Positions 5,560-40,882 of a stretch of 40,882 nucleotides of DNA are shown here, one piece after another. Every line of letters starts with the position of its first letter. Position 1 is the first letter of the stretch. The notes under the pieces were generated by a model, which worked only from the letters and a program-made list of their open reading frames with translations, ran no database searches and was not told where the DNA came from. The position numbers and the translations under genes were made by a program. The stretch lies in IMG/VR virus record IMGVR_UViG_3300033273_000025. One strand, 5' to 3'. The stretch is from a virus.

Positions 5560-5561
5560 CG

Positions 5562-9947: not shown

Positions 9948-9963
9948 GATTCAAGGAAGCACA

Positions 9964-10415: not shown

Positions 10416-10418
10416 GAG

Positions 10419-11033: not shown

Positions 11034-11040
11034 GGATACT

Positions 11041-13680: not shown

Positions 13681-13691
13681 GGACATCTAGC

Positions 13692-14725: not shown

Positions 14726-14879
14726 AACTGACGAGCAGAATAAGATAACAAACTATCTACTCTGCCTACCCGAAGAAAAACCCGAGGGATTCTTTCAGGT
14801 AACAACCGCACTGCCAGTCTGTGAAATCTATGACCCAGTGACAGGGACATCCACACCAGAGGAACCGGACAATGGCTAG
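14709..14879 (+). CDS. Possible small protein (56 aa, GTG start), below the ORF-track cutoff.
   Basis: GAGG lies 7 nt upstream of GTG 14709. The ORF fills the gap between neighbours and its stop overlaps the next start region. Confidence 0.3.
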   Translation: MNHYIKTDEQNKITNYLLCLPEEKPEGFFQVTTALPVCEIYDPVTGTSTPEEPDNG

Positions 14880-16073: not shown

Positions 16074-16076
16074 ATC

Positions 16077-16469: not shown

Positions 16470-16473
16470 CACA

Positions 16474-17315: not shown

Positions 17316-17323
17316 GAACTAAC

Positions 17324-17608
17324 ATGCCACAAGCAGAGAGTTGGCACCTGTCAAAGAGTGTCCCCATATCCCTTATCTTTGGACTATTGGTCCAAGGTGC
17401 TGCAATAGTCTGGACTGTCAGTATGATGATGTCAGACATTGATACAAACCAAGCCGACATTAACGAACTTAATGCACGTGTTTTGCGGGTAGAGGATGCT
17501 GTCCATGAACAGGCAGTCTCTATGGCGCGTATAGATGAAAACATAAAGGCTATTCGTAAGGCTGTAGAGACTATGGCCTCACGTAACCGTCCACAACCAC
17601 AACCATAA
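17324..17608 (+). CDS. Membrane-anchored coiled-coil protein at the head of the lysis cassette, possibly spanin- or holin-associated.
   Basis: N-terminal TM segment (ISLIFGLLVQGAAIVWTV), heptad-like middle, Pro-rich end RPQPQP. Confidence 0.6.
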   Translation: MPQAESWHLSKSVPISLIFGLLVQGAAIVWTVSMMMSDIDTNQADINELNARVLRVEDAVHEQAVSMARIDENIKAIRKAVETMASRNRPQPQP

Positions 17609-17640
17609 CCCCCTCAACAGAAAAGCAAGGAGAGACGCCA

Positions 17641-18048
17641 ATGTCATTTGTTGGTGCGCTTACCTCTGTTGTGCCTAGCGTCCTGAGTATCATCGACAAG
17701 GTGGTCCCAGACAAGGGTGCAGCCGAGTTAGCCAAAAGTAAGATTGAACTTGAGTTAGTCCAAGCGGCTACAGAAATTAACCGTCTACAAGCAGAGACGA
17801 ACAAGGTCGAGGCCGCCCACCGATCCATCTGGGTCGCAGGTTGGCGTCCGGCAATCGGCTGGTGTTCCGCGCTGGGTGTAGCCTATTTTTTTGTTTTGGA
17901 ACCCCTGCTGCAATGGGCAGCCGTAGCACTGGGGTGGACAATCACTACACCGAAGTTCCCAGAGGAAGCACTGTTCGAGATGGTGTTCGCAATGCTGGGC
18001 ATGGCGGGTCTACGGTCATTCGAGAAGATCAAAGGGGTTGCAAAGTGA
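17641..18048 (+). CDS. Holin, GTA-type 3-TM family.
   Basis: AAGGAGAG RBS. The pattern ...VPDKGAAELAKSKIELELVQA...AETNKVEAAHRSIWVAGWRPAIGWCSALGVAYFFVL matches the holin family of Rhodobacterales GTAs and phages. Confidence 0.7.
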   Translation: MSFVGALTSVVPSVLSIIDKVVPDKGAAELAKSKIELELVQAATEINRLQAETNKVEAAHRSIWVAGWRPAIGWCSALGVAYFFVLEPLLQWAAVALGWTITTPKFPEEALFEMVFAMLGMAGLRSFEKIKGVAK

Positions 18049-18560
18049 AGGACAACTGGACTGCATGTCTAGCCAAGGTGCTAGAGTCCGAAGGCGGCTT
18101 TGTGAACCACAAGCGTGACCCGGGCGGTGCGACAAACCTAGGTATCACCAAGCGTGTCTACGAACAGTGGGTACAGCGGCAGGTCAGCATCCAAGAGATG
18201 CGTGAGTTGACTGTGATACAGGCAGCACCGATCTACGAACATGAGTATTGGAACCGTGTCAGAGGTGACGAACTGCCTGATGGTGTCGATCTACTCATGT
18301 TTGACTTTGCGGTGAACGCTGGAACCAGTCGTGCTATTCGCATGGCTCAGAGGGTAGTGGGTGTTAAGGCCGATGGTATCATTGGTCCTGTGACCCTACA
18401 GGCGATCAACAACTACGACCCCCAAGACTTCATCAAAGAATACTCTGATCGAAAACTGGCGTTCTACAGACGTCTCAAGCACTACGACACCTTTGGTCGT
18501 GGTTGGGAACGTAGAACACAAAAAACACAGATCGCAGCACTCGAACTGTTGCGTGACTGA
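18045..18560 (+). CDS. Endolysin: GH108-type N-terminal domain plus a peptidoglycan-binding domain.
   Basis: GTG 18045 overlaps the holin stop (GTGA). The motif LESEGGFVNHKRDPGGATNLGIT is the EGG(Y/F)-x-DPGG-x-T-x-GIT signature. The upstream part of ORF-track 17841.. lies inside the holin gene. Confidence 0.85.
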   Translation: MKDNWTACLAKVLESEGGFVNHKRDPGGATNLGITKRVYEQWVQRQVSIQEMRELTVIQAAPIYEHEYWNRVRGDELPDGVDLLMFDFAVNAGTSRAIRMAQRVVGVKADGIIGPVTLQAINNYDPQDFIKEYSDRKLAFYRRLKHYDTFGRGWERRTQKTQIAALELLRD

Positions 18561-24985: not shown

Positions 24986-25335
24986 CGATTGTCGCCAGAG
25001 CCACCAATGACCCCACGCTCTTTGCGCGAGTTTAGTTTCTCAATGTTCATGGCTGCGATTGAGTTTAGCGAGATGTCCAAGTCACGCGCGAGGGCTGCAA
25101 TGTACCAAAGCACATCACCAAGTTCCGCACCAATGTCCGCACGTTGCTTGTCGCTCAACAGGACTTTTCCATCGAAACGAATGTTGTCGTCGCGGATCAA
25201 CTTCTTGATCTTGCCACCGACTTCACCCGCTTCATTGGCTAGGCCAAGGGCAGGGTAGATCACCTTCCACTTATAGATTGCTGTGTGGGCTGTATCGGCC
25301 TGATAGTCGTTCATTGTGTACGAGTGATTAACCAT
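24982..25335 (-). CDS. mazG: MazG-like nucleoside triphosphate pyrophosphohydrolase.
   Basis: LGLANEAGEVGGKIKKLIRD ... ELGDVLWYIAALA ... NIEKLNSRKERG. Confidence 0.8.
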   Translation of the reverse strand: MVNHSYTMNDYQADTAHTAIYKWKVIYPALGLANEAGEVGGKIKKLIRDDNIRFDGKVLLSDKQRADIGAELGDVLWYIAALARDLDISLNSIAAMNIEKLNSRKERGVIGGSGDNR

Positions 25336-25624
25336 GTTTACGTGTCGCCTTTTTTAGATAATCTGTGTGCTGCCAAATTGACTGAGTGACGCCGTGTGGT
25401 CCTGTGCGTTGACCGATCTTGCTGATCAGTCCCATCTTGACCAACTTTTGAAACTTACTGGTCACGGTTCCATAGGCGTAATGCGGTAGTTCCCGACAAA
25501 GTTCCGCTGCAATAATCCCCGAACTACCCGCCGCGTGGATTGCGTCGAGTATCGCACTTTCTGCGTTAGTTAAGAGTTCTGGTGTCCATGTGATGTCTAT
25601 GAACTGCATCTGTGTCTGCTGCAT
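25328..25624 (-). CDS. Winged-helix DNA-binding protein (MarR-like fold suspected).
   Basis: 98 aa. AILDAIHAAGSSGIIAAELCRELPHYAYGTVTSKFQKLVKMGLISKIG. Confidence 0.55.
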   Translation of the reverse strand: MQQTQMQFIDITWTPELLTNAESAILDAIHAAGSSGIIAAELCRELPHYAYGTVTSKFQKLVKMGLISKIGQRTGPHGVTQSIWQHTDYLKKATRKHG

Positions 25625-28438: not shown

Positions 28439-28457
28439 AATAGGGGGACAGAAGTCA
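28435..28457 (-). promoter_or_regulatory. Phage RNAP promoter, copy A, reading leftward. Its first 3 nt are the RNAP stop codon.
   Basis: The minus strand TGACTTCTGTCCCCCTATTGAAG is 23/23 identical to copy B. The CCCTATTG core resembles T7 CACTATAG. Predicted +1 is G at 28438. Confidence 0.7.
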
Positions 28458-31085
28458 ACTGAAGCAGAATTGAGACATTCTGATTAAGTCGAGGTCCAGT
28501 GTCCCCTTGGTTGGAATACACTTGTCGAACTCATGCGCTGGGTTCGATAGTTGCTGTCTGATTTCATCCTCGAACTTCTGAAACACACACTCGCCAGAGT
28601 ACATGTCGATGAAGGTTTCGCGGACTGTATCAAACAAGTCCCAACAGTCACCACTTACAGCGAAACTGTCGTGGATCATGAAGAAGTCCTCGGCTTGGTT
28701 AGCCTCAAGCATTTTCACGATGGTGAGGTGCATATGTGCTGCATCACAACCATGAACCAGATTGGGGCAGATGCCATTTGTGGACTTCTTAACGTCACTT
28801 GCGTCCAACTCTTCGCGTAGTGACATTTTGGTACGGCTGCGTTCCTTGATTGCACGGTCATACAGGAAAATTTTAATCTCTTTGCGTCGAGTTTTCTTGT
28901 AGTCTTGGACAATCGGGAACCCACTGGGTGAGGTCCAACGGATCGGCTTGTTTTCACGCGCCAACGCTTCCGTGACATGTTGCAAGTATTCCATAGATTC
29001 CGCGACTTTTGGGAGGGTGTCTTGGATGCTGTCGTAGGCTACTTGCGCCATGAATTGTGCCGCCTCAAACTGGTCGTCTTCGGTGGCCCCAAGCGGATGC
29101 TCAGGTAGTTCTCCATAGGCGACTTGACGTTGCAGAGGTTTCATAAAGTCATCCATGAATTGTGTGGTCATCCCGACAGGCTTTGAGGAGTAACCATAGG
29201 TCATGGTCGCTCGTTTCAAAGTGCTGCGGGTGACACCGTGGTCTAGCCACGATTTCGATAGTTGGGCAATAGTTCTACCGCCCTCACGCTTACTGTTGAA
29301 TGGTGTGTGGTCGTCCAACTTAGACTGAAGTACCTCCACGACACGTTCCGCATTGCTACGGTAAATGTCTGCCATTTCCTCAGAGGGAACCAAGTTGACC
29401 AAAGCACCTTCGCGGCTGCTTCGGTTGATGCCAGAGTAATGCTGCACACCACTGTTAGTTCCATCCAATGAAAGCGGAATGTAACACACGAAGTTGTCGC
29501 CCTCTTCGATCAACCGCTTCAACTCGAACACGGCTGCCAAGAACTGGAACGGCTTGTCGGCTTTGGACCACTTGTCAAAGGTTGACCGAAAGTCCTCGGC
29601 TACCTCCAACAACCATTCCAAGTTATCGTCCACCCACTGCGCCCTAGAATCCAACGGCTGCTTGGACACCTTGTCAAAGTCACCCACATTCGCCAGATGA
29701 ACCTTGAGCCAATAGGCATTGCACCCCTCGACTCTGTAGCCTCTGTAGAACGTAAACAACGCCTTGATGTGGTCGTCGCGGTGGTAGTTGAAACTTGGGA
29801 TGAAATACATGCGCCCTCGGAAGTCGAGATTGGCAGGTAGATAAAACTTGTCGTGAACCACCAGTTCGATTGCGGTCTGTAAGTCCTGACGCATGACCTC
29901 GGCTGCACCTTTGACTTGGGATTCAAGTTTCTGGTGTTTCCGAATGTCGGCTTTCAGTTCTGCCACTTTCTCACGCGGTAACTCTTGCCAGTTCTCGGGT
30001 AGACGTGGACGCGGTGGGATAAACGCAGTCGGAAACTTACCGAATTGCTTTTGCTCGTCCCAACACCACTGCACCGCCTCCAGAACAGGCCCATTGATCG
30101 CCAGAGGAGTCGCTTGAAGCGCGTTTAGTGCCTTGACGTAGGTAGGGGTGCCAGATGTGAATTGGTGCCTCACAGCGGCTTCCTGTTCGGCTGTAGCCTG
30201 ACGAACCAACTTGACCGTCGAGGCCAGAAAGTCGTCATGATAGCAACCTGTGTCAAAGTCCACCCACGGCTTAGGCTCCGCAAGCATTGGCTTGTAGATC
30301 GGGGCCATCCAAGAAAGGTAACGCTCGGAACGCTCAAGTTGTGCTTGGGCCTCCTCAGTGAACGTGAGTTTCAGGCTTGTGTTGTTCTTGCCCTCGGTGA
30401 TCAGGTTCTTGTCGAACACCTCCGAGAACTCAAGAACGGTAGACAAGATTGGGGCCGCAAGTTTTGCTCTGCGTTCCTTCAATGCCTGACGTTCTGCACG
30501 TGTCTTTGCGGTGCCAAAGTTAAGGCTTCGGGTGCCGTTCTTCTCCGCGATAATCCGCAGTGCCTTTAGGCGGTACGCAGGGCTTGTGTGCGCCTCCGTC
30601 ACTTGGTCGATTAGCCGCTTGTTGGTGTTCAGTGGCTTGGGTCGCTCAAGTCCTAATTCCTTGGCCTGTTCAACGGCTGCCTTGTGCTTGGCCTTGTCGT
30701 CAAACAAGAGGTCATTCTTGAGCAACTCTTTTTCCACCAGTTCACCAATGTTCTGAGTGACTTGAGTGACTGAGTGCTCCTTCAACACCCCATTAAATGA
30801 ACACAAAAGACCAATGTAAGCCAAAGTGCTTTCGTCAACCTGAGACAGATCGTCAACCCATGCAGGGTGTCTGCCTTTGGTGGCTTTAGCTTCCTTTAGT
30901 GCCTTTAGTATTCCTTGGGAAACCTTGGGCAAGGCTTCTTTAAGTTTGTTGAAGTGGTGGGGGCTGTCTGTGGCCTCAGTCTGCTCACTGAACTTTTGAT
31001 GCCATTTGTCTTTGCCTTGGGTACGCATAGTGCGCTCATAGGCTGCATTAGTGTCTCTAGTGGCTACTCTAGTATCTAATGTCAT
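28455..31085 (-). CDS. Single-subunit DNA-dependent RNA polymerase (T7 gp1-like).
   Basis: 876 aa. DGTNSGVQHYSG, RSTLKRATMTYGYSS, MIHDSFAV, and a C-terminus ...SQFCFS (T7 ends FAFA). Confidence 0.95.
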   Translation of the reverse strand: MTLDTRVATRDTNAAYERTMRTQGKDKWHQKFSEQTEATDSPHHFNKLKEALPKVSQGILKALKEAKATKGRHPAWVDDLSQVDESTLAYIGLLCSFNGVLKEHSVTQVTQNIGELVEKELLKNDLLFDDKAKHKAAVEQAKELGLERPKPLNTNKRLIDQVTEAHTSPAYRLKALRIIAEKNGTRSLNFGTAKTRAERQALKERRAKLAAPILSTVLEFSEVFDKNLITEGKNNTSLKLTFTEEAQAQLERSERYLSWMAPIYKPMLAEPKPWVDFDTGCYHDDFLASTVKLVRQATAEQEAAVRHQFTSGTPTYVKALNALQATPLAINGPVLEAVQWCWDEQKQFGKFPTAFIPPRPRLPENWQELPREKVAELKADIRKHQKLESQVKGAAEVMRQDLQTAIELVVHDKFYLPANLDFRGRMYFIPSFNYHRDDHIKALFTFYRGYRVEGCNAYWLKVHLANVGDFDKVSKQPLDSRAQWVDDNLEWLLEVAEDFRSTFDKWSKADKPFQFLAAVFELKRLIEEGDNFVCYIPLSLDGTNSGVQHYSGINRSSREGALVNLVPSEEMADIYRSNAERVVEVLQSKLDDHTPFNSKREGGRTIAQLSKSWLDHGVTRSTLKRATMTYGYSSKPVGMTTQFMDDFMKPLQRQVAYGELPEHPLGATEDDQFEAAQFMAQVAYDSIQDTLPKVAESMEYLQHVTEALARENKPIRWTSPSGFPIVQDYKKTRRKEIKIFLYDRAIKERSRTKMSLREELDASDVKKSTNGICPNLVHGCDAAHMHLTIVKMLEANQAEDFFMIHDSFAVSGDCWDLFDTVRETFIDMYSGECVFQKFEDEIRQQLSNPAHEFDKCIPTKGTLDLDLIRMSQFCFS

Positions 31086-31107
31086 ATTAACTGCTCTTTC
31101 CTTAGTC

Positions 31108-31130
31108 CTTCAATAGGGGGACAGAAGTCA
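31108..31130 (-). promoter_or_regulatory. Phage RNAP promoter, copy B, 26 nt upstream of the RNAP start codon.
   Basis: The minus strand reads TGACTTCTGTCCCCCTATTGAAG. Predicted +1 is G at 31111, followed by GAAGGACTAAGGAAAGAGCAGTTAATATG. Confidence 0.7.
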
Positions 31131-31153
31131 GAGCGGTCACCATATGACCCCTT

Positions 31154-31197
31154 TGTGCCCTGCCTCAATGTGCCCCTTCGGGTGCTGAAATGTGCCC
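31154..31197. repeat. Three direct copies of WWTGTGCCC (GGGCACAWW on the coding strand) upstream of promoter B.
   Basis: TGTGCCC occurs at 31154-31160, 31169-31175 and 31191-31197, spaced 15 and 22 nt apart, in the int-RNAP intergenic region. Confidence 0.6.
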
Positions 31198-31210
31198 TCT
31201 TGTGGGGCGA

Positions 31211-32038
31211 TTAGTTTGCCATTTGCGCTGCTAGTGCCTGTAGTGCGCTGGGCTTCGCTTTGATATATTTGCGCGTTGTCTTTTCGCTCTTGTGGCCCAG
31301 TAGAAGGCCAATCACTGCGGTGTTTGCTTTGAGGTCATTCGCCATGACTGTCGCCGCTGTGTGTCTGAGCGTGTGAAACACATATCGCTTGTCATTCCGC
31401 AGAATGTCTTTGCGCATGGCTCCCCATGTTCGGTAGAATCGCGTGTGCTCAAAATACCCACGACAATCGAAAGATAAAGCCTCCAAAGCAGAGTATGCCC
31501 TAGCATTCACTGGAACGAATCTCTCAGTGCCGTTTTTAGTCTTGGGTAGGTGTATCCATATATCGCCGTTCTCGTCCTCAGTGACGCTGTGAGGGGCTAT
31601 CTGGCATATCTCACCAAGCCTCATGCCTGTCTGATGTCCGAGAACCACAAAATGCTGCATCCACGGCTCGGAACTATGCTTGAACCAATCCTCCATCGCG
31701 GTCAGTTGCGCCTTGGTGAAATACAAGGGCCGCTGCTCATGCTCAACACGCTTCCAAGTGAACTGCGGCGCGTGTGTTATCACCTCCTCCTTTACCGCAT
31801 GTTTGAAAACTTTGGTCAGCATGGCTGCGTAGTGGTTCACGGTGTTGTCACTCAGTCCTTGCGCGGACAGATGGTCAAAGAACGCATGAATGTCCGAGGG
31901 CTTGAAGTCTCCTATATGGCGTTGGGCATGTTCCCCAAAGTCATTGAACTTTTGTGCCTTGGTGACTGACCGTTTCAGGTGGTCCCCATGCCATAGGCGG
32001 TGGGCTTCGTTGGTGACAAATGTTGCAAAGGTAATCAT
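31211..32038 (-). CDS. int: Tyrosine integrase.
   Basis: Start ATG 32038 after AAGGAGG, with an ATGA overlap on the upstream stop. Motifs TGMRLGE, FHTLRHTAAT, LLGH and TRKYIK. The ORF-track N-terminal extension to 32242 overlaps the upstream gene. Confidence 0.9.
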   Translation of the reverse strand: MITFATFVTNEAHRLWHGDHLKRSVTKAQKFNDFGEHAQRHIGDFKPSDIHAFFDHLSAQGLSDNTVNHYAAMLTKVFKHAVKEEVITHAPQFTWKRVEHEQRPLYFTKAQLTAMEDWFKHSSEPWMQHFVVLGHQTGMRLGEICQIAPHSVTEDENGDIWIHLPKTKNGTERFVPVNARAYSALEALSFDCRGYFEHTRFYRTWGAMRKDILRNDKRYVFHTLRHTAATVMANDLKANTAVIGLLLGHKSEKTTRKYIKAKPSALQALAAQMAN

Positions 32039-32355
32039 TGCGCTGCCTCCTTGTCGGCTAATTCCTCCACGCGGTTCATGATCACCGCCATTGCGACACC
32101 CAAATCCTTGAGTGTCGCCTGTTCTGCCATTTCGCGGACTGACTGCCACGGATGCGGCCTTGTGCTGCTGCTGTAATGCGTTTGCGGCTGTGGTGCGTGG
32201 ACTGGCTGCGCGTGGCCTCCCACGCGGTGTTCGTTTAGCCACTCAAGCAACGCTGCCTTGTCGGTTGGTACGTCAACCAGATTGACTTCGCCGTGGTCAC
32301 GTTTGGCCTCGGCCTGTGTGCCTACCCAGTGTCCGTTTTGTGTGTAAAGTTTCAT
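32035..32355 (-). CDS. Hypothetical protein, translationally coupled to int.
   Basis: ATG 32355 (MKLYTQNGHWVG) after GGGGAG. Its stop overlaps the int start. Confidence 0.6.
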   Translation of the reverse strand: MKLYTQNGHWVGTQAEAKRDHGEVNLVDVPTDKAALLEWLNEHRVGGHAQPVHAPQPQTHYSSSTRPHPWQSVREMAEQATLKDLGVAMAVIMNRVEELADKEAAQ

Positions 32356-32359
32356 GTCT

Positions 32360-32737
32360 TTAGCTCCCCAAGAAAAAGCGGACTGCGGGTGTGTCGCCCT
32401 CAAAGGCGGGTTCAACGGATTCAATGAAGGTGTGCCAATCGCCTGTACGGTTCAGGAACTCAGCGACAGCCTCCTTACACGATTGGACATCGACACGCCC
32501 ATCGCGCACCTTGACCTTGTGCTCCATGATTACCTTGGACCAGTGCTCGTCGAAGCGGCCCTCGTCGTCACGTGTCAGGCGTAAGTGTGGTTGCACAAGC
32601 CAATATTCACCATCTGGCAACTCTGTAATTGTGTCGTGGCCTACGCGGTCCTCAGTTTCCCAAGTCTCGTATGGTCCGTCTGTGTTCTTGTAGATTGACC
32701 AAGTGATACGGTCTGCGGTGTAGTTTTCGTTAGTCAT
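32360..32737 (-). CDS. Hypothetical protein.
   Basis: ATG 32737 (MTNENYTADRITW) after GGAGAC. Confidence 0.6.
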   Translation of the reverse strand: MTNENYTADRITWSIYKNTDGPYETWETEDRVGHDTITELPDGEYWLVQPHLRLTRDDEGRFDEHWSKVIMEHKVKVRDGRVDVQSCKEAVAEFLNRTGDWHTFIESVEPAFEGDTPAVRFFLGS

Positions 32738-32862
32738 TCGGTAGTCTCCGAGATTAGAAGGGGGGTTCGTCTGTGGGCTTCTTAGGCTTCCACACAACAT
32801 CCACCCCATGCATGATAAGAATGAAGGCCTCCAAGGTGTGCCCCCAGAGGCTCTGGGGTTCG

Positions 32863-32958
32863 TTAGTAGATTGAGCCAAAGACAAGGCCGCCGTACAGCA
32901 TCAGGAACAGGCAGATAACGCCCACTAGATCGCCAAGGATTTCACGCCAGTTCCACAT
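32863..32958 (-). CDS. Possible 31-aa membrane peptide, below the ORF-track cutoff.
   Basis: TGATG stop/start overlap with the upstream ORF. Sequence MWNWREILGDLVGVICLFLMLYGGLVFGSIY. A 7-bp hairpin (CCCCAGA/TCTGGGG) follows. Confidence 0.4.
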   Translation of the reverse strand: MWNWREILGDLVGVICLFLMLYGGLVFGSIY

Positions 32959-33410
32959 CAGACTGCCTCCCGCTGCTGTGACATTTCGAGTAGCCGCTTG
33001 TGGTTATTTACGCGGGTGTTGTAGCTAATCCGCGCTTGCTCAAGGCTGTTAGGGTAAAGGCCATAGTAGCACCCACCGTCTTGCGTGTTGTGGTCCCACA
33101 CAACGAACTGTCCGTTCCACTCACACAGGACTGTCCACAGGTGCTTGTCGCCTTCGTGGGGGAACTGTGTTGCCGCAATTACGGTTGCACCGTTGCTAGG
33201 CTCTAGTCCGTGCAGTGGTTGGCCTAGTTCCGCGTAGTTCTTCATTAGACCCGCGTGGGTTCCGTCACTCTTCAGGATGTGCTTGCGCTGCCCGAAGTAT
33301 TCTTGGCCCTCTTCGACGCACTCGGCGCGGGTGAACGCCCCAAAGACGTCCTCCCACTTGTTGGTGTCCTTATTGAAAACGAAAAGTGTGTAATAGACTG
33401 ATGCTGACAT
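32958..33410 (-). CDS. Hypothetical early protein.
   Basis: 150-aa ORF, starting 2 nt after the upstream stop. Confidence 0.65.
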   Translation of the reverse strand: MSASVYYTLFVFNKDTNKWEDVFGAFTRAECVEEGQEYFGQRKHILKSDGTHAGLMKNYAELGQPLHGLEPSNGATVIAATQFPHEGDKHLWTVLCEWNGQFVVWDHNTQDGGCYYGLYPNSLEQARISYNTRVNNHKRLLEMSQQREAV

Positions 33411-33412
33411 GA

Positions 33413-33706
33413 TTACACCTCCTCTGCGATACGTTGTGCGGCATAGATGCCCGCAAGCATCGAACGCATTGCGTTGTAGGTGTTACGCTTGGTGTCATAG
33501 TGGGTGATGGTGTGGACACCGCCGCCACTGTTGGCGATACGCTCAAGGCGTACACCGCCATATGCACCGCCTAGGGTGTAAACACCCGCGACTGACTGAA
33601 ACTTACCGTTCTCGTCACGTGTATAAGGTTCGGTGGGTTGGCCTAGTGCCTCGTTAATCTGACGAACTACGAACTCTAGGTCTGCATTTGTGATACGTTT
33701 TGTCAT
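33413..33706 (-). CDS. Hypothetical protein, the first gene of the leftward block.
   Basis: GGAGA lies 7 nt upstream of the ATG. 97 aa. Confidence 0.65.
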   Translation of the reverse strand: MTKRITNADLEFVVRQINEALGQPTEPYTRDENGKFQSVAGVYTLGGAYGGVRLERIANSGGGVHTITHYDTKRNTYNAMRSMLAGIYAAQRIAEEV

Positions 33707-33757
33707 TCGACTGTCTCCGTTGTGTTGCGGAGGTATTCAGTCGGAAGTCCTTTGAAG

Positions 33758-33816
33758 TGGTGGGCGACCTAGGAATCGAACCTAGCGTGCGTCTCCGCGA
33801 GGGAGTTACAGTCCCC
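33758..33816 (-). other. 3' fragment of a tRNA-Tyr(GUA)-like sequence, a candidate attP core. It has anticodon arm, long variable arm, T arm, acceptor 3' strand and CCA, but no D arm or 5' acceptor.
   Basis: The minus strand reads GGGGA-CTGTAAC-TCCCT CGCGGAGACGCACG CTAGG-TTCGATT-CCTAG GTCGCCC A CCA. Upstream sequence cannot form a D arm or pair with GTCGCCC. Confidence 0.65.
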
Positions 33817-33866
33817 TCGAACCTGAGTGCCACCATATCGCAGAAGCCCCGACAGCCTCCGTACGA

Positions 33867-33898
33867 ATCATATGCGCACAACGGAAATCCCCTGTCAA
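33867..33898 (-). promoter_or_regulatory. Possible host-type promoter reading leftward.
   Basis: The minus strand has TTGACA (33898-33893) preceded by a T-rich stretch. -10 candidates are CATATG (18-nt spacer) or TATGAT (20-nt spacer). None is canonical. Confidence 0.3.
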
Positions 33899-33926
33899 AC
33901 AAAAAGTGTCCAGGTGGTACACAAAA

Positions 33927-33949
33927 ATGACTTATGTCCCCCTATAGAG
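33927..33949 (+). promoter_or_regulatory. Phage RNAP promoter, copy C, rightward, heading the structural block.
   Basis: TGACTTATGTCCCCCTATAGAGA matches copies A and B at 19 of 23 positions. CCCTATAG then AGAGG parallels T7 CACTATAG then GGAGA. Predicted +1 is G at 33946. Confidence 0.7.
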
Positions 33950-33973
33950 AGGAAGCGGACACCACCGCCGCCG

Positions 33974-34008
33974 CAGTGACTAGAGACACTAGAGTCACTG
34001 AGAGTGAC
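33974..34008. repeat. Cluster of GTGAC/GTCAC half-sites and short tandem repeats (CACTAGAG-like) in the 5' leader of the rightward unit.
   Basis: cAGTGACTAGAG-ACACTAGAG-TCACTGAGAG-TGAC. AGTGACT (33975-33981) is the inverted complement of AGTCACT (33993-33999). Confidence 0.6.
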
Positions 34009-34060
34009 AAGAACATCCTCCTCTGCCTCACACCAAGAAAAGAGAAACAAGAGACACCAT

Positions 34061-34076
34061 AGTCACCTTAGTGACT
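34061..34076. other. Palindrome built from the same half-site.
   Basis: AGTCAC-CTTA-GTGACT. Confidence 0.55.
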
Positions 34077-34160
34077 GTGGTGGGTGTGGTTGACCCCAGT
34101 TCTACCCGACAAGAACTTAGGCGGTCCCACGCCTCCTATAGATACATGAGAGAGCCAAAG

Positions 34161-34370
34161 ATGCTGACGATACTAAGAAAGACTGTACGCACCCTAGAAA
34201 GCCTTGTGTTGCTTCTGGCGGCGTATGAATACCATTGCAGGGCCAACCGTGCTGTTAGCCAACTCAGGCTCCACAGTGACGCAGAACTCAAGGACATTGG
34301 TCTGCACAAGGGCATGATCTATCAGGCAGCGCACAAGGATTGCGGATGGTGTAACCGTGGTGACGGTTAG
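34161..34370 (+). CDS. DUF1127-like small protein.
   Basis: ATG 34161 after GAGAGAG. Sequence MLTILRKTVRTLESL...RANRAVSQLRLHSDAELKDIGLHKGMIYQAAHKD. The core R-x-x-x-x-x-L-x-x-L-S-D-x-x-L-x-D-I-G-x-x-(R/K) is the DUF1127 signature. The ORF-track GTG start 34071 lies in the palindrome. Confidence 0.65.
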   Translation: MLTILRKTVRTLESLVLLLAAYEYHCRANRAVSQLRLHSDAELKDIGLHKGMIYQAAHKDCGWCNRGDG

Positions 34371-34551
34371 TGCTAACGAATGCTGTGCATTGCCCGAAGT
34401 CAGGGCTGTTGTGCTGTTGATGGGTTTGGTTGTCTCTAGTCTGCTGGTGTATCTGGTGTTGACTGAGGTTGCCTCCCGATCCGTGTCGAAAAGTCATGAC
34501 CCCCAGCCAGACAAATTTCCCAAGGCTAATGTCACCGAAGTCGACCACTGA
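34357..34551 (+). CDS. Possible small membrane protein, start uncertain.
   Basis: One hydrophobic helix VVLLMGLVVSSLLVYLVL. GTG start, or an internal ATG at 34420. Confidence 0.35.
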   Translation: MVTVSANECCALPEVRAVVLLMGLVVSSLLVYLVLTEVASRSVSKSHDPQPDKFPKANVTEVDH

Positions 34552-34712
34552 TACCCCCCGCCCCCTAGTGGGATACTATATCCCCTACCAGTGAAACCTA
34601 GGAAAAACAGTAGGTTAGCAGCAGTGGCCTTGGAAAACTTTAGGTTCCCTAGCCAAAAAGCACCCCCCGCACCCTCAGAATCAACTCAATTTCAAAAAGT
34701 AGGCTAAAGGTC

Positions 34713-34729
34713 GTTGTTGTTGTTGTTGT
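34713..34729. repeat. (GTT)5 trinucleotide microsatellite in non-coding DNA.
   Basis: gttgttgttgttgttgt, read directly. Confidence 0.9.
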
Positions 34730-34813
34730 AGTCCGGCCTTTGTCAGCACAGGCCCACCTCAGACACAACTGCCTCCCCAGCCACCCCAGATAACAAATAG
34801 AGGAACGTCCGAC

Positions 34814-35323
34814 ATGGGCTTAGAAACTTCGACATACGTCAACGGATTGAACGCAAACAATCCAGCGGCAACTGATGGTCTAGCGCAAGCGGACGATCAC
34901 CTACGCTTAATCAAAAGCACCATCAAGAATACTTTTCCGAACCTAGACGCAGCAGTAACAGCGACACCCGCAGAACTGAACGTACTAGATGGAACTGACG
35001 TAACAACAGCGTCTTTGAACAAACTTGAAGACGTCATTGCTTCGGCAGAGGAACTGAACAAACTAGAAGGTACAACGGTAACGACATCAGAGATCAACCG
35101 TCTTTCTGGTGTTACAGGTGACGTACAGACACAACTGAATACCAAAGCACCTTCTGCATCCCCCACCTTTACTGGCACAGTTACACTAGGTGCCTTTACG
35201 ATCAGCGTGGGTAGCGATGGACGCTTGGACTTCAAGGTCGGTAGCACAACGGTTATGTCTTTAGATCAATCCGGCAACCTACGCGTTAAGGCAGACATTA
35301 GCGCATTTGATACCTCGGCATAA
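34814..35323 (+). CDS. Tail fibre-like protein (N-terminal fibre motif).
   Basis: GAGGAA RBS. NANNPAATDGLAQADDHLRLIKSTIKNTFPNLDAAVTATPAELNVLDG and PTFTGTVT are motifs recurrent in phage fibre proteins. Confidence 0.65.
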   Translation: MGLETSTYVNGLNANNPAATDGLAQADDHLRLIKSTIKNTFPNLDAAVTATPAELNVLDGTDVTTASLNKLEDVIASAEELNKLEGTTVTTSEINRLSGVTGDVQTQLNTKAPSASPTFTGTVTLGAFTISVGSDGRLDFKVGSTTVMSLDQSGNLRVKADISAFDTSA

Positions 35324-35325
35324 CA

Positions 35326-36060
35326 ATGGCTATCCAAAACACAGGTGTAATCAAGTTCTCACAGATACAAGGAGAGTTTGGTGGTACACATCCGATCAAA
35401 GCCTCTGAATACTATCGTAATGGGGCATATGTAACTTCTAACAACACCGAAGTTGGCACGAGTGGACGCATAGACCTAAGTGACTACTACGGTTCCCAGC
35501 GCGGACTTACCCTTGTGTACGAGATTATCGGGGGAGGGGGCGCGGGTGGCGGCGGCGTAGATGACCGCAGCGGCTCAGGTTACGGACAGTCCGGACAAGC
35601 GAGTTCCCTAAACGGCAGTGCCGGTGGTCTATCTATCAGCGTAACGTCAGCCGGAGGTGCCGGTGGTGCCAACGGTGCTATCAGTCGTCTTGAGTTCCAC
35701 GGCGGTGAAGCCTCTTACTACGGTCCCGGTGGGGCCGGAGGTAATAACCAAGCGTCAGGTGGCAACGCCCCAGCGAGTTCTCACGGAAGTGGGGGCGGGG
35801 GCGGTGGTGGAGATGCACCGGGCACCTTTGACCGTTCAGGTAACGCAGGTATCGGTGGTTCTGCCTCAGACCGTGTGACTGGTGAAGCACTATTGGTGCC
35901 CGGGACTCAAGTGACAGTAGTCATCGGCGCAGGTGGTCCTCGTAACACATACGGATACGATGGTGGCGCAGGTGCCAGTGGTTACGCACGTCTACAGGTC
36001 GGTAACACTGTGTCTGAGTACCCTAACGCTGGAACCTATACGTTTACCGTTCCCTCATAG
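35326..36060 (+). CDS. Glycine-rich virion protein.
   Basis: 244 aa. FSQIQGEFGG...ASEYYRNG is followed by long GGGGAGGGG-type tracts. Confidence 0.65.
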   Translation: MAIQNTGVIKFSQIQGEFGGTHPIKASEYYRNGAYVTSNNTEVGTSGRIDLSDYYGSQRGLTLVYEIIGGGGAGGGGVDDRSGSGYGQSGQASSLNGSAGGLSISVTSAGGAGGANGAISRLEFHGGEASYYGPGGAGGNNQASGGNAPASSHGSGGGGGGGDAPGTFDRSGNAGIGGSASDRVTGEALLVPGTQVTVVIGAGGPRNTYGYDGGAGASGYARLQVGNTVSEYPNAGTYTFTVPS

Positions 36061-36082
36061 TAAAAAATGACAGGAGTAGGCC

Positions 36083-37684
36083 ATGCCTAACTTACCAATC
36101 CGTGGGCTAGGTTCCGTTGGTGTGGTCACTGACGTTGATCCCTACAACCTACCTATCGGTGGCTTCACACGTGCTAAGAACGTACGCTTCACAGAAGGTA
36201 AAGTCACAGCGGGTCCAGTGTATCGCTCAGTTTCGGATGCGGTCACTTGGAACCCTAAGTTTTCTTACGGACTAACAGCACTGACTGGTTACGATACTGT
36301 GTTGGTGGTGGATGATACGCTTACAGTACGTGAGTTCTCTAACGGTGCCTTCGCTACGGTACACACAGGGACTCAGCAGTCCAACACCTCTGAAATCACA
36401 GCGACAACACTAGCGGACGTCGAGTACATCAACAGATCAGATAGTGCCCCGATTGCACGTACCCCCAGCGCGTCTTTGTTTACTGCGTTGGCTAACTGGC
36501 CTTCTGGAATGACTACGAAGTCACTGCGGTCCTATGGCGACTTTTTGCTTGCGCTGGGTACTGTAGAGTCAGGGGTATCTTACCCTAACCGTGTGCGGTT
36601 TTCTGATCCAGCCTTGGCGAACCAAGTGCCCTCTACGTGGGACGAGACTGATCTAACGAACTCTGCGGGTTTCAACGACCTAGTACAGATGAAGACACCT
36701 ATTATCGACGGTGCAACTCTAGGCTCAAACTTCCTTGTGTATTCACAGGATCAGGTTTGGATGATGGAGTTTGTCGGCGGTACGTTCATCTTTAACTTCC
36801 GTAAGGTCTTTGACGATGCGGGGGTAATCAACAAGAACTGTATCGTGGAGATCGAAGGTAAGCACTATGTGTTTGACCGTGACGACATCTACGTGACTGA
36901 TGGTAACTCACGTCACTCAATCTGTGACGGACGTGTCCGTGAGTACATCTTTGGCGGTATCGACTACAAAAAGTCTGACCAGTGCTTCGTGATGCACAAC
37001 ACAGAACTTGAAGAGATTTACTTCTGCTACCACACAGGCGATGACATGGTTGTGTACGCAGACGGTGACGCTTGTAACCGTGCAGCAGTCTACAACTACA
37101 AAGATGACGTCTGGACGTTCCAAGACTTACCGAATGTTGTCTCAGGTGCCACAGCAAACGTGAACTCTGTTATTTCATACGCAGACGCTACGCAGACTTA
37201 TGCGACTGTTGGTGGTTCGTACCACGATCAGGAAAGTGAATACACACGTCACCCACTCATGGTGTCCTCTGTAGGCGGTGGTGTAACTTCTGCCAAAATC
37301 TACGGTTTGGACCTAGTGGACAGTGGTTCTCTGTCACAGGAGATTGATACGACTGTATCTCACGCACCATTCCTAGAACGTGTGGGTATTGATCTTGATG
37401 AACAAGGTATTCCGCTTAGTGGGTACAAGGTTATAACAAAAGTTCTACCACAGATCACAACGCCTAACTCTGACGGTAACTTCCAGTTCACTTTTGGTTC
37501 TGCAATCGTACCAACAGGTACGCCAAACTACGGTTCTGACGTCTCATTCGATGCGCTGTCTGCCTACAAGGTGGATACACGTATGTCTGGGCGGTACTTA
37601 TCTTACAAACTGACGAGTGACACACTCAAAGACTTTGCTTTCTCAGGCATGGACGTGGAGGTGGTGGTCACTGGTCGTAGGTGA
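36083..37684 (+). CDS. Virion structural protein. A tail, nozzle or tubular role is suspected from position only.
   Basis: AGGAG RBS. 533 aa starting MPNLPIRGLGSVGVVTDVDPYNLP. Confidence 0.65.
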   Translation: MPNLPIRGLGSVGVVTDVDPYNLPIGGFTRAKNVRFTEGKVTAGPVYRSVSDAVTWNPKFSYGLTALTGYDTVLVVDDTLTVREFSNGAFATVHTGTQQSNTSEITATTLADVEYINRSDSAPIARTPSASLFTALANWPSGMTTKSLRSYGDFLLALGTVESGVSYPNRVRFSDPALANQVPSTWDETDLTNSAGFNDLVQMKTPIIDGATLGSNFLVYSQDQVWMMEFVGGTFIFNFRKVFDDAGVINKNCIVEIEGKHYVFDRDDIYVTDGNSRHSICDGRVREYIFGGIDYKKSDQCFVMHNTELEEIYFCYHTGDDMVVYADGDACNRAAVYNYKDDVWTFQDLPNVVSGATANVNSVISYADATQTYATVGGSYHDQESEYTRHPLMVSSVGGGVTSAKIYGLDLVDSGSLSQEIDTTVSHAPFLERVGIDLDEQGIPLSGYKVITKVLPQITTPNSDGNFQFTFGSAIVPTGTPNYGSDVSFDALSAYKVDTRMSGRYLSYKLTSDTLKDFAFSGMDVEVVVTGRR

Positions 37685-37689
37685 TCAAC

Positions 37690-37968
37690 ATGTCTCTATC
37701 AGATAAAATCAATCTACTGGTGTCGCGCTATGCGCGGCGTCAGACGCCTCGTCTCGAAGACAACTTAGGTCCGTATATACAGGACGAACTACGAGAAATT
37801 GAGGCTTCAATACGTTCTTTGGCAGAAGCCTCGGTGCAAGTAGCCGACAGGGAACCTGAAGGTGTCCGTAGAGGCATGATCAGGTACGCAGTTTCACCTT
37901 GGAACCCCCTAGGCAACGGTACAACCGGCCTTGTCGTGTACAATGGCACGGCTTGGGTAGCCGTATAA
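37690..37968 (+). CDS. Small virion-module protein.
   Basis: ATG 37690 after AGGTGA. The ORF-track GTG 37681 is an alternative (GTGA overlap). Confidence 0.55.
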   Translation: MSLSDKINLLVSRYARRQTPRLEDNLGPYIQDELREIEASIRSLAEASVQVADREPEGVRRGMIRYAVSPWNPLGNGTTGLVVYNGTAWVAV

Positions 37969-37989
37969 TCACAAAAGAAGGATATTCAT

Positions 37990-39039
37990 ATGTGGGGCGC
38001 AATTATTGGCGGCGCAATGGGCCTAATGGGTGCCAACAAGCAAGCCAAAGCACAAGACAAAGCAACTGAAGCAGCAATGGCTGGCTTCAACCAGTACAAA
38101 CCATACGTTGACGCGAACCTAAAAGGTGCATCCGGTGCCTTGGACGGTGTTCTAGCGACTGGAGCCTACTCAGGTCCAACTTACGCTGGTCCAAACGAGT
38201 TCCAGACAGGCACAGCGAACACTATGGGCAACATCGGTGGCAATATGATCACCGCTGGCAACAATATGATGAACAATACGAACTCGTTTGGTAACAATGC
38301 CAACGATTTGTATTCTCAGTTCCAAGGTATGGCGGCAGATGCACGTCAGGACCGCCTAAATACAGCGATTGACTACGCAGCAAACAACGGACAAGCCCTT
38401 GTTGACGCTGCAATGCGCGATGATCGCCGTAATCTACAAGAAAACACGCTTACAGGCATTGATCTGGCGGCCTCTGGCTCAGGAAACATGAACTCTAGCC
38501 GTGCTGGTGTCGCAGAAGCCGTTGCACAACGTGCTTACGATGACCGCCGCGCTGATGTAGCCGCCGGAATCCAAGATCGTTTGATTGACCGCAGCCTTGC
38601 ACAGCAAGCACAGCAGTTCTCAGACCAAGGTACAGCCCTAAATGCAGCCACAGGTGCGAACAACAACCTAATGGCAGCATACAACACCGGCATGAACACG
38701 CTAGGTGAGGGTGCGAACTTCGGTATGAACGCAGGTAACACTCTGCAAGGGTTCGATCAGGCACAAATGAACGCGAACATGAACGACTTTAATCGTTTGC
38801 GCGACTTTGAACTGGATAAGCGTATGCAGTACCAGTCTGGTATCTTAGGTCAGGCACCACAGCAGATGGGTCAGATCAGTTCTACCGCTGTAGACCCCAT
38901 GCAGGGTGCGCTTGGCGGTGCGATGCAAGGCTTCGGATTCCAACAAAAGTATTTCCCGAATGGACTTGAGATCAACGGCAACGGAAGCATGTTCAACGGA
39001 TTGTTTGGCGGCGGCCCAGGACTAGGGAGTTTTAGCTAA
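37990..39039 (+). CDS. Internal virion-type protein rich in Gly, Asn, Met and Gln.
   Basis: GAAGGA RBS. N-terminal glycine-zipper-like MWGAIIGGAMGLMGA. Low-complexity N/Q/M/A-rich body. Confidence 0.65.
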   Translation: MWGAIIGGAMGLMGANKQAKAQDKATEAAMAGFNQYKPYVDANLKGASGALDGVLATGAYSGPTYAGPNEFQTGTANTMGNIGGNMITAGNNMMNNTNSFGNNANDLYSQFQGMAADARQDRLNTAIDYAANNGQALVDAAMRDDRRNLQENTLTGIDLAASGSGNMNSSRAGVAEAVAQRAYDDRRADVAAGIQDRLIDRSLAQQAQQFSDQGTALNAATGANNNLMAAYNTGMNTLGEGANFGMNAGNTLQGFDQAQMNANMNDFNRLRDFELDKRMQYQSGILGQAPQQMGQISSTAVDPMQGALGGAMQGFGFQQKYFPNGLEINGNGSMFNGLFGGGPGLGSFS

Positions 39040-40625
39040 TGTGGCAACAACTTAGTAACAACCCACTGTTCCAGTCGTCAGCCTTTGGCAGTTACATGAC
39101 TGAGGACCGCTACAATGCTCTTGATCAGAACACAAAAGACTTTCTTGCGCGTACTTATGTCAACAATGGTGCGCCGGTCCCAACAGTCAAACCAGAGCCA
39201 GAGGTCACACCTGAACCACAGGTAGACAACAACCAAGGCTTTGTGCCGGTAACTGTAAACGCAGGTCAGTCAAACTCAGCATCCCTTTTGTACAATCCAC
39301 AGACAGGTGGTGTACGTGCAAACGGTATGGCTGGTGAGATTCTGTTGCAGAACGAGAAACTTGCACAAGAACTCGCACGTGATGCCTATAACCAGTCGTT
39401 GCAGCAGCCGGTGAAAGATGCAGCACAGAAGATGAAGACAGCCGAGGGTATTCTACAGAATGTCCCGGGCGACCCTTCTGGCGATCTGATCAAGGTGTAC
39501 AACGATGCTAAGTCAGGACTTGCAGCAGCACAGGCATCAGCAGATCAAAACTACAGTGCCCCTGATGCAGTCACTATGGTTGGCAGCCGTATTCTACCAC
39601 AGACTACAACCCCAACTATGACTGGACTAGAAGGCCAAGAGTTCACTCGTCCTGTGTTAAATACAACGGCACCTGTTGAGCAATCGCCAACGGCACCGGT
39701 ATTGACACAGCAGCCTGACAACTTCTTGGACATGGAAGCACAGTACAGCGGCAGTCCTTCGCTACTACAGGACAAACCTGTTCTTGTAGACACCACACAG
39801 CCTACGACCCCTACAACTACCACTGAATCCAAGCCTGTTCTGAAGTCAGGTGGTCAGGGACGTTCTACAGGCGCACTGAGTGCAGGTAGCATCACAAGTT
39901 CATCTGGTCCTAAGACAAGTAACGCACGTGGTTCTATGATGCCACAGATGCTTATTGATCGTAACGAGGCATTGATCCGCATTGGCGGTGCTATGTACTC
40001 AGGTGCGCTCAAGGGCGATGGTATCGGGGCAGCGACACAAGAGTACGGACGTATCCAAGACGCTAACCGTGAACAAGCACGTAAAATGGCTGAAGCGGAA
40101 CAGAAGCGTAAACTTGAAGAGGCCAAACTACGTGCAGCACGTGCAGGTGGTGGTAAAGGTTCCTCAAAGTTGAACAAAGATGACCGTGAGTTACTGACTG
40201 CAACTAGCGATGCTATGTTCAACTACGAGAAAGCACTACAAGCACTACGTGACAGCCGTGCAGCAGGTGGTAACTTGACTGGTCTAGGCGGTATGGCGAA
40301 GTCCCTGTTTGATAACTTCACAGGTGACGAGGATGCAGCAAGACGTCTTATCCTACAACGTGTGAAAGTAGATGATGCACTTCTACGTGTTGCGGAAACT
40401 AAGGGTGCTATCTCTAACGCTGAGATGCAGTTGTTCTTGGCCCCAGCACCGAAGAACTGGCAAGACGAGTCTGTGTGGGAACAGTGGTTGTTAGACCGCA
40501 TGGAAGCCCTACAGCGTGTCGAGCAGCGATTGACTCAAGGTTCTACCGTACCTTTGAATCAACGACCAACAGGTTCTACAGCATCAGGACTGTCTGACGA
40601 AGACTTGGCCTATATCAATAATTAG
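39039..40625 (+). CDS. Internal virion-type protein.
   Basis: TAATG overlap. 528 aa with P/T-rich linkers and a coiled-coil-like K/E/A-rich segment. Confidence 0.65.
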   Translation: MWQQLSNNPLFQSSAFGSYMTEDRYNALDQNTKDFLARTYVNNGAPVPTVKPEPEVTPEPQVDNNQGFVPVTVNAGQSNSASLLYNPQTGGVRANGMAGEILLQNEKLAQELARDAYNQSLQQPVKDAAQKMKTAEGILQNVPGDPSGDLIKVYNDAKSGLAAAQASADQNYSAPDAVTMVGSRILPQTTTPTMTGLEGQEFTRPVLNTTAPVEQSPTAPVLTQQPDNFLDMEAQYSGSPSLLQDKPVLVDTTQPTTPTTTTESKPVLKSGGQGRSTGALSAGSITSSSGPKTSNARGSMMPQMLIDRNEALIRIGGAMYSGALKGDGIGAATQEYGRIQDANREQARKMAEAEQKRKLEEAKLRAARAGGGKGSSKLNKDDRELLTATSDAMFNYEKALQALRDSRAAGGNLTGLGGMAKSLFDNFTGDEDAARRLILQRVKVDDALLRVAETKGAISNAEMQLFLAPAPKNWQDESVWEQWLLDRMEALQRVEQRLTQGSTVPLNQRPTGSTASGLSDEDLAYINN

Positions 40626-40634: not shown

Positions 40635-40882
40635 ATGGCTGAATACACCATTGAAGACTATAAACGTGGAGCGAGAGCCGCACACGCCGCTGGTGACATA
40701 GAGGCTGCAAAACGTCTTATCGCAGCGGCTAGGGCACTCGAAGGTACTCAGTCAACACCCTCACAACCAGACGAAAGCCTAGGCGGTGCCCTTGGCTACG
40801 GTGTGGACAATGCCCAAAAGATGCTTGGTAAAGGTATCCAAGGTGTCGGTGAACTTACCGGCATGGAGGGTGTTGAGCAGTA
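40635..40882 (+). CDS. N-terminal part of the junction-spanning large internal virion protein. It continues at base 2 and gives 1124 aa in the circular molecule.
   Basis: ATG at 40635 is preceded by GAGGTAAGAG and is open to the window end. Base 40743 equals base 2 and is in the same codon phase as the ORF listed 62..3268. The N-terminus reads MAEYTIEDYKRGARAAHAAGDIEAAKRL. Confidence 0.8.
   Translation, partial: MAEYTIEDYKRGARAAHAAGDIEAAKRLIAAARALEGTQSTPSQPDESLGGALGYGVDNAQKMLGKGIQGVGELTGMEGVEQ
40742..40882. repeat. Terminal exact overlap, copy 2 (identical to 1-141).
   Basis: Same 141-nt string as the window start. Confidence 0.95.

Follow-up and report, generated by a model that had tools for sequence, protein, structure and literature searches.

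Attachment sites (attP) derived from host tRNA genes, together with demonstrated integration, are known among marine T7-like phages (bioRxiv 10.1101/410191; PMC8776855). In the cyanophages P-SSP7 and S-TIP37, attP is situated downstream of the gene for the integrase (int) and matches a tRNA-Leu, and T7-like cyanophages have been described as integrating without lysogeny (PMC8776855). In the HTVC019P-type pelagiphages, attP is found between int and the RNA polymerase (RNAP) gene, the targets are tRNA-Cys, tRNA-Leu and tRNA-Arg, and some of these phages carry partial 5' tRNA ends (bioRxiv 10.1101/410191). Here we analyse a viral DNA of 40,882 nucleotides (nt), the IMG/VR record IMGVR_UViG_3300033273_000025 (hereafter the window, meaning this whole stretch), in which the 3' part of a tRNA-Tyr precedes the early genes on the minus strand. 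We conclude that this element very probably serves as attP for a T7-like podovirus that encodes an integrase and has bacteria of the Roseobacter group (Rhodobacterales) as hosts. A tRNA-derived attP beside a tyrosine integrase is already established for marine T7-like phages and the window element works in the same way; it differs in its tRNA-Tyr target in roseobacters, its position at the head of the operon and its two divergent gene arms, and it is a member of a family with alternating cassettes carrying either the 5' or the 3' half of the tRNA.

The closest described systems share much with this locus. Like P-SSP7 and S-TIP37, the window is T7-like, with a tyrosine integrase gene next to the RNAP gene, an attP that is an exact part of a host tRNA, no recognisable repressor and apparently rare integration, and the best cultured-phage match to the window integrase comes from this system (~30% identity, the level found with the integrases of S-TIP37, HTVC019P-type pelagiphages and CRP roseophages). 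As in the int/attP modules of marine T7-like phages, the window pairs a single-subunit RNAP with a replication gene set of T7 type, and int immediately precedes the RNAP gene. By contrast with P-SSP7 and S-TIP37, whose genes are collinear on one strand and whose attP lies downstream of int and corresponds to tRNA-Leu, the window has two divergent arms and a tRNA-Tyr attP that precedes the first early open reading frame (ORF), at 1.7 kb upstream of int. The HTVC019P-type phages likewise have a tyrosine-family int upstream of the RNAP gene and target tRNA genes, but all their attP sites lie between these two genes, and their cores are of 11-46 bp, compared with a 62-nt identity block here, in a different tRNA and a different host group. 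The paper that described the first Autographiviridae roseophages noted integrases and did not mention attP.

The tRNA-Tyr block and its integrase

The minus strand from 33817 to 33758 is identical at 60 of 60 positions (blastn) to positions 25-84 of an 84-nt tRNA-Tyr(GUA) gene. It reads, in order, AGGGGA-CTGTAAC-TCCCT, a long variable arm, the T arm CTAGG-TTCGATT-CCTAG and GTCGCCC-A-CCA, where CTGTAAC forms the anticodon loop (33811-33805) and contains the anticodon GTA (33809-33807), GTCGCCC is the 3' strand of the acceptor and A is the discriminator, followed by CCA. The trailer bases CT after CCA also agree with many hosts. An earlier note on this DNA, made from the sequence alone, had recognised a 3' tRNA-Tyr fragment without D arm or 5' acceptor strand and had considered it a candidate attP; the description was correct, and the block extends to 33756-33817 when the two trailer bases are added to the 60 identical ones. 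The same note had anticipated a Rhodobacterales tRNA-Tyr with an identical 3' part, and such genes were found: a 53-nt probe of the block matched exactly in 113 stretches of species-representative genomes, all of them Rhodobacterales/Paracoccaceae, mostly Roseovarius but also Salipiger, Marivita, Citreimonas, Thalassococcus, Sagittula and others. A chance origin of the identity need not be considered. In nearly all 113 host loci the full tRNA-Tyr gene reads GGGCGACAGGCCGCAAGGTGTGGC followed by AGGGGACTGTAAC; it is complete according to ARAGORN, occurs once per locus and is usually followed by no other tRNA. The phage block reaches the 3' end of the host gene, so that recombination there would restore the gene. 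Among viral sequences, a 25-nt probe (T arm plus acceptor) matched 11 contigs, and viral contig L011 contains a complete 84-nt tRNA-Tyr(GUA) whose 3' part equals that of the window.

A cognate recombinase is encoded nearby. The tyrosine integrase (Pfam Phage_integrase PF00589, E=1e-16) lies 1.7 kb downstream of attP on the same strand, where the earlier note had placed it, although its start has to be revised: translation begins at the ATG at 32038, giving 275 amino acids (aa), and not at the GTG of a 343-aa ORF, 66 of 66 homologs being ~275 aa long. The catalytic residues R140, K168, H222, H249 and Y258 are invariant and R225 is nearly so among 20 homologs. The protein consists of a SAM-like core-binding domain and the catalytic domain, leaving no room for an arm-binding domain, and its nearest solved structure is XerA.

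Phages often carry tRNAs, and the piece might alternatively be a decaying phage tRNA gene or a tRNA-like RNA element, such as a processing signal in the early leader, with no role in recombination. In favour of such an origin, Rfam produces a weak full-length alignment of tRNA-Sec type that uses an upstream GGTGGC as the 5' strand, and this GGTGGC is conserved in the window clade; the score is nevertheless sub-threshold, at 17.7 bits (E=1.1) where the gathering score is 47. Decay would be expected to give scattered mismatches, whereas the 62 nt are 100% identical to the host gene and their flanks are unrelated to it. ARAGORN, which the earlier note had proposed to run in case the region held a complete phage tRNA, detects 0 tRNA genes across the whole window, and no complete tRNA is present; likewise, the 101 nt around the piece (33750-33850) fold no better than shuffled sequences (z -0.38). 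Moreover, as detailed below, relatives carry the complementary 5' half of the tRNA at the same place, and no RNA function would be common to both halves. We consider this explanation very improbable.

The phage-specific left arm that abuts the block contains a small hairpin, GAGGC-TGTCGGG-GCTTC (~33859-33843), the conserved GGTGGC (33834-33829) and a TTCG that touches the core. The arm from GGTGGC to TTCG was also evaluated as a relic of the 5' half of the tRNA, which would imply a full tRNA in an ancestor, and rejected, since 37-98% of shuffled sequences reach its local alignment scores.

Relatives carrying one or the other half of the tRNA

Our comparison set comprised 80 viral contigs with integrases 43-84% identical to that of the window, plus more from the protein collection, one of which has an integrase 97% identical. 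About 45 loci (integrase identities 44-97%) each carry either the 5' or the 3' part of the same tRNA-Tyr and, wherever the region upstream of int is present, the piece is always located there, on the int strand. The 3' part (positions 25/29-84) occurs in ~16 loci, including the window clade, L144, L191, L192, L211 and L212, and the 5' part (positions 1 to 41-45) in ~30 loci, including L125-127, L146, L152, L172-L190 and others. The only overlap between carriers of the two pieces is ACTGTAACTCC, namely the anticodon loop and a few stem bases, which would place the crossover in the anticodon loop. We infer from this comparison that strand exchange would take place within the loop and that the recombinase would bind the halves of the anticodon stem as inverted sites.

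The two kinds of piece can be exchanged. Contigs L144 (3' piece) and L168 (5' piece) are near-identical in both flanks and differ in the att cassette alone, implying that the cassette has been exchanged as a unit on an otherwise unchanged backbone. The swapped halves were compared at L144:600-1200, L168:3820-4420 and L146:4200-4800, and they occupy the same spot on near-identical backbones.

Such sites recall a class of tRNA integration sites, reportedly defined by Williams in 2002, in which the crossover lies in the 7-nt anticodon loop, the stem provides symmetric flanks and the element carries the sequence from the loop to the 3' end of the gene. The window resembles this class in the tRNA sequence that extends to the 3' end and would restore the gene, and would resemble it also in a crossover in the loop between the stem flanks. 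It differs in that its integrase family also has 5'-half members, even on near-identical backbones, and in its 275-aa enzyme devoid of an arm-binding domain.

Phages of this family are not the only elements to bear this 3' piece. At least two other types of viral contig have it beside an ORF of integrase size: the AT-richer contigs L002, L004 and L010, where the adjoining ORF on the opposite strand encodes 335 aa with 25-28% identity to the window integrase, and contig L008, where the opposite-strand adjoining ORF encodes 348 aa. In addition, the genome contig L105 contains a lone tRNA-Tyr 3' fragment after unrelated sequence (~6389-6445, in the tRNA sense, the reverse complement of the stored locus), which looks like the right junction (attR) of some other integrated element. 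Since these other contig types carry the 3' piece as well, the tRNA-Tyr gene can be regarded as an integration hotspot. In hosts L011, L020, L021, L074, L083, L092 and L098, ~1.8 kb separate the tRNA-Tyr from a downstream tRNA-Gly, a distance of 140 nt in L046; the ~1.8-kb interval may correspond to a small element inserted at the same hotspot.

A scan of JGI metagenome contigs for the attP pattern retrieved the known viral contigs and one further attP (L214). The close integrase homologs P0001, P0004 and P0031 are all on contigs of free-phage type, several of which break at the att site. Contigs L001/L137/L218, L155, L189, L211, L221 and L220 also begin or end a few tens of bases from the att piece, as expected if the tRNA gene of a host in the same sample makes an assembly branch point.

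Integrated forms

One host contig contains the junction predicted for integration at this site. L070, a 3,084-nt contig of a Rhodobacteraceae metagenome-assembled genome, has a 2.9-kb flank that is syntenic with, and 68-80% identical to, the tRNA-Tyr flank in 96 other host loci; this is followed by a complete tRNA-Tyr and then by CTTTCAAAGGACATACCCGATAGAGACTTCCGCAACCAAACGGAGACTATCGAAATGACC, that is, the spacer, hairpin and first-ORF ATG of a window-clade phage. The phage part measures 68 nt and ends the contig, and the junction falls exactly at the tRNA-Tyr piece. L070 thus displays the predicted left junction (attL), a hybrid of host and phage, on a single short contig end. Together with the host identity and the family pattern, it supports the proposal of the earlier note that attP consists of the 3' part of the host tRNA-Tyr.

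Independent support for integration behind a tRNA gene comes from a related integrase acting at a different target. The 361-kb metagenomic contig L222 shows host genes, a complete tRNA-Thr(UGU), 59 nt of spacer, a 59-aa ORF, int, the RNAP gene and T7-like replication genes (L222:8723-12478), with an integrase 45% identical to that of the window and an RNAP of 825 aa; the contig end falls inside the prophage, leaving attR unseen. The family is thus also found in the form of chromosomal prophages whose early operon immediately follows a tRNA gene, the geometry that the earlier note had predicted and that L070 displays at tRNA-Tyr.

Several observations weigh against the attP interpretation or the details attached to it. 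The crossover position is an estimate from comparisons, and no excisionase or directionality factor was recognised by Pfam/PHROGs among the ORFs between att and int. The L070 junction may be a mis-join across the 62-nt shared repeat during assembly, and it is the only one for the tRNA-Tyr clade among the 113 host loci. Searching these loci with the phage proteins by tblastn revealed no prophage beside tRNA-Tyr; the 113 genome loci and the metagenome scans yielded neither an attR junction nor a complete tRNA-Tyr prophage flanked by repeats, and an attL-specific pattern had 0 matches in the JGI metagenome contigs. The prophages flanked by the repeat that the earlier note had envisaged in host genomes are consequently represented by one attL-type junction and by no complete element. 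As for the 83-kb contig of the RNAP homolog P0163, phage genes occur on both sides and a host flank is absent from the stretch read. Stable lysogens of the tRNA-Tyr clade look rare, a scarcity that would fit the integration without lysogeny of T7-like cyanophages (PMC8776855).

Could the piece be a passive scar of host DNA acquired by imprecise excision, with the functional attP elsewhere in the genome? The match of the two trailer bases CT with many hosts is what would be expected of sequence once copied from a host. However, the window contains no second copy of the core, the piece co-occurs with the integrase family across deep divergence, and the L070 junction falls precisely at it. We give this possibility hardly any credit and retain the identification of the piece as attP.

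Organisation of the operon head and of the genome

The surroundings of attP (Table 1) are arranged in the same way across the family: divergent structural genes, an outward phage-promoter-like motif, a TTGAC box, a small GGC/GCC hairpin, the tRNA piece, a spacer of 50-170 nt, the first early ORF, zero to eight small ORFs, int and the RNAP gene. The order from the promoter box to the first ORF holds in every lineage examined, in 5'- and 3'-piece carriers alike and over integrase identities of 44-97%. In the window, the piece points in the same direction as the early genes and its CCA ends 51 nt before the first of them (start 33706), as the earlier note had stated; an exact-sequence look-up of the 97-aa product of this ORF returned no record.

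Table 1. Positions of the attP element, its flanking signals and the adjoining early genes in the window
Feature	Position	Strand	Basis or remark
attP identity block: host tRNA-Tyr(GUA) 3' part, positions 25-84 with CCA, plus 2 trailer bases	33756..33817	-	62-nt exact identity
Probable crossover region ACTGTAACTCC, containing the anticodon loop between the inverted-repeat halves of its stem	33802..33812	-	Sole segment common to all relatives
Phage-specific left arm of attP, also the early-transcript 5' leader	33818..33866	-	Conserved in the window clade; unlike the tRNA 5' half
Host-type promoter candidate: TTGACA (33898-33893), 17-nt spacer, GCATAT (33875-33870), towards attP and early genes	33870..33898	-	Putative function
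Phage-RNAP promoter-like 21-mer TGACTTATGTCCCCCTATAGA, rightward to the structural genes	33928..33948	+	Two more copies; conserved in relatives
Two-tier hairpin: outer stem CGACTG/CAGTCG, inner stem CTCCG/CGGAG	33708..33743	-	Occupies the greater part of the 51-nt spacer
First early ORF, 97 aa	33413..33706	-	ORF list; no Pfam match; one PHROG of unknown function
Tyrosine integrase, 275 aa, without N-terminal arm-binding domain	31211..32038	-	Pfam Phage_integrase and SAM-like domain
T7-like single-subunit RNA polymerase, directly downstream of int	28455..31085	-	Pfam RNA_pol, E=1.2e-76

The earlier note had proposed two promoters here. For the phage-promoter-like 21-mer, the rightward orientation is confirmed by two sister copies on the gene strand, one shortly before the RNAP gene (31130-31110) and one before the next gene (28457-28437). 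The box of the leftward TTGACA candidate belongs to a TTGAC[AG]-[AG]GGGA[TC] motif found at the same relative position in all lineages, with a weak -10 element 17-18 nt further on. A generic sigma-70 scan of 33300-34500 called no promoter and missed it because of this weak -10, so its assignment rests on conservation. The [AG]GGGA[TC] that follows TTGAC (33893-33887 in the window and at the same position in relatives) resembles the left half of the att core, AGGGGAC; it may represent an additional site for integrase binding that overlaps the promoter, or just belong to the promoter.

The spacer between the tRNA piece and the first ORF is almost entirely occupied by the hairpin, which leaves no room for a promoter there. 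Its 3' arm contains the Shine-Dalgarno sequence GGAG (33718-33715), and a single nt separates the end of the hairpin from the ATG. Among 37 distinct relatives, 34 have a Shine-Dalgarno at least 3/4 paired (mean z -2.7), and of 5 pairs predicted by RNAalifold, 3 show compensatory changes. Stems change in a compensatory manner between clades (CTCCG/CGGAG, CTCCTT/AAGGAG, CCTTCTT/AAGAAGG and CCTTCTC/GAGAAGG) as well as within the window clade (GACTG/CAGTC versus GATAG/CTATC), and a hairpin that buries the Shine-Dalgarno likewise follows the tRNA in prophage L222. Translational control and an RNase site are both possibilities for its role.

From these elements a sequence of events can be proposed. 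In the free phage, the host RNAP would start at the TTGACA promoter and transcribe through attP into the early genes. The Xer-sized recombinase would then recombine attP with the host tRNA-Tyr(GUA) gene by exchange inside the anticodon loop. As the phage copies everything from the anticodon arm to CCA, an intact tRNA-Tyr would be regenerated at attL, in the form seen in L070, and a duplicate 3' piece would be left at attR. Since attP shares the orientation of the early genes and separates the first of them from the host-type early promoter, the prophage would present, in order, the host tRNA-Tyr promoter, tRNA-Tyr, the 51-nt spacer with the hairpin that sequesters the Shine-Dalgarno, then four small ORFs followed by int, the RNAP gene and the replication genes. 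The early promoter of the phage and the divergent phage promoter would be displaced to the opposite end of the prophage, where the former would be directed outwards across attR. No terminator was predicted in the 51-nt spacer behind the tRNA piece or in the matching stretch of prophage L222, so that transcription from the tRNA promoter would enter the operon; the geometry suggests read-through and not silencing.

This leads to a more speculative reading, an elaboration of the repressor-independent change of early expression that the earlier note had suggested, in which the position of attP is itself functional: integration would exchange promoters, so that the operon comprising the early genes, int and the RNAP gene would lose its link to the early promoter of the phage and be driven, or damped after tRNA processing, by the growth-rate-controlled promoter of tRNA-Tyr, and prophage early expression would track host physiology instead of obeying a CI-type repressor. 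We find this reading tentative and, on balance, unlikely. It draws strength from the element order, which is kept in every lineage and with both types of piece, from the predicted lack of a terminator between tRNA and operon in the window and L222, and from the absence of a recognisable CI/Cro among the early ORFs. In 5'-piece carriers, moreover, the only tRNA-Tyr of the host would be rebuilt behind a phage promoter, which would have to stay active. On the other hand, to have attP next to int and oriented like the tRNA is the common arrangement for tRNA-integrating elements, and the position may simply be historical. Transcription running on from a strong tRNA promoter would also express the RNAP and favour lysis over quiescence. 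Finally, lysogens appear rare, as with the T7-like cyanophages that integrate without lysogeny (PMC8776855). That attP has been kept between the early promoter and the operon for the sake of such an exchange, and that the phage promoter in 5'-half relatives drives the cell's only tRNA-Tyr gene, is in our opinion doubtful.

Ordinary repression may offer another way to control this prophage. The statement of the earlier note that no CI-like repressor is evident stands for the early ORFs, among which Pfam and PHROGs revealed no CI/Cro or other repressor, but has to be qualified by two observations that leave room for such control. The first is a 98-aa ORF (25328-25624, minus strand) between the primase-helicase and MazG genes, with matches to MarR_2 (19.6 bits) and Penicillinase_R (17.1 bits) that are both below cut-off. 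The second is a cluster of palindromes with GTCAC/GTGAC half-sites in the control region 33965-34075, consisting of AGTCACTAAGGTGACT, GTCACTCTCAGTGAC and AGTGACT-N11-AGTCACT; two copies of GTGACT[AC]T[AG]GTGTCTCT also occur there, at 33998-33982 and 34066-34050. These palindromes look like operators and are partly conserved in relatives.

The idea that the position of an attP may alter phage gene expression has a precedent in the mycobacteriophages of clusters G, N and P, for which Broussard et al. in 2013 reportedly found attP inside the repressor gene, integration truncating the protein. The likeness is one of concept: in the window, attP occupies an intergenic position, with a promoter on one side and an operon on the other, and has no repressor-like ORF beside it. 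For temperate T7-like phages and prophages, namely LUZ100, Pasto and a prophage of P. putida KT2440, control of the MarR type has been proposed, and in LUZ100 the MarR-like gene is co-transcribed with int (PMC10134795). With these, the window family shares an early module of int and RNAP, a phage promoter directly before the RNAP gene and chromosomal prophages (here L222), and the 98-aa winged-helix ORF is a possible regulator candidate, given these proposals (PMC10134795). By comparison with LUZ100, this only MarR-like signal of the window is weak and located in the replication module.

The rest of the genome conforms to a T7-like podovirus with an unusual layout. An exact 141-nt repeat (1-141 = 40742-40882) indicates either a circular assembly overlap, 141 being a common maximal k-mer, or true terminal repeats, for a genome of ~40.7 kb. 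The minus arm, from 33706 down to 19157, encodes four small ORFs, the tyrosine integrase, the T7-like RNAP (~31% identical to RNAPs of Ralstonia Autographiviridae), a Gp2.5-like single-stranded DNA-binding protein, endonuclease I and, further on, primase-helicase, MazG, DNA polymerase, exonuclease and ribonucleotide reductase. The plus arm (34071-40625 and 62-18560) encodes tail and internal proteins, terminase, portal, scaffold, capsid, collagen-like fibres, holin and endolysin. Two adjacent tail-fibre genes at 11041-14492 contain long collagen-like arrays of 9-nt (Gly-X-Y) units and alanine/serine-rich 21-nt repeats. At the DNA level, positions 31000-36000 had no match among 50,697 phage records, and there is no cultured close relative.

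Our results assign to hosts of the Roseobacter group a podovirus lineage that is uncultured and has been sampled globally, and they provide its exact bacterial attachment site (attB). In this lineage, T7-like RNAP and replication genes occur together with two divergent gene arms. With it, tRNA-Tyr and an attP close to the promoter join the few integration modules listed for marine T7-like phages, whose lifestyle, with integration accompanied or not by lysogeny, is still debated. Its naturally paired 5'-half and 3'-half att cassettes point to a crossover in the anticodon loop. If the exchange of promoters were functional, this otherwise ordinary element would offer a simple alternative to repressor-based control of lysogeny, namely a repressor-free control of a T7-like prophage coupled to the growth rate of its host. 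In addition, an essential tRNA would tie host and phage to each other, and the free exchange of 5'- and 3'-half att cassettes on the same backbone would form part of the system.

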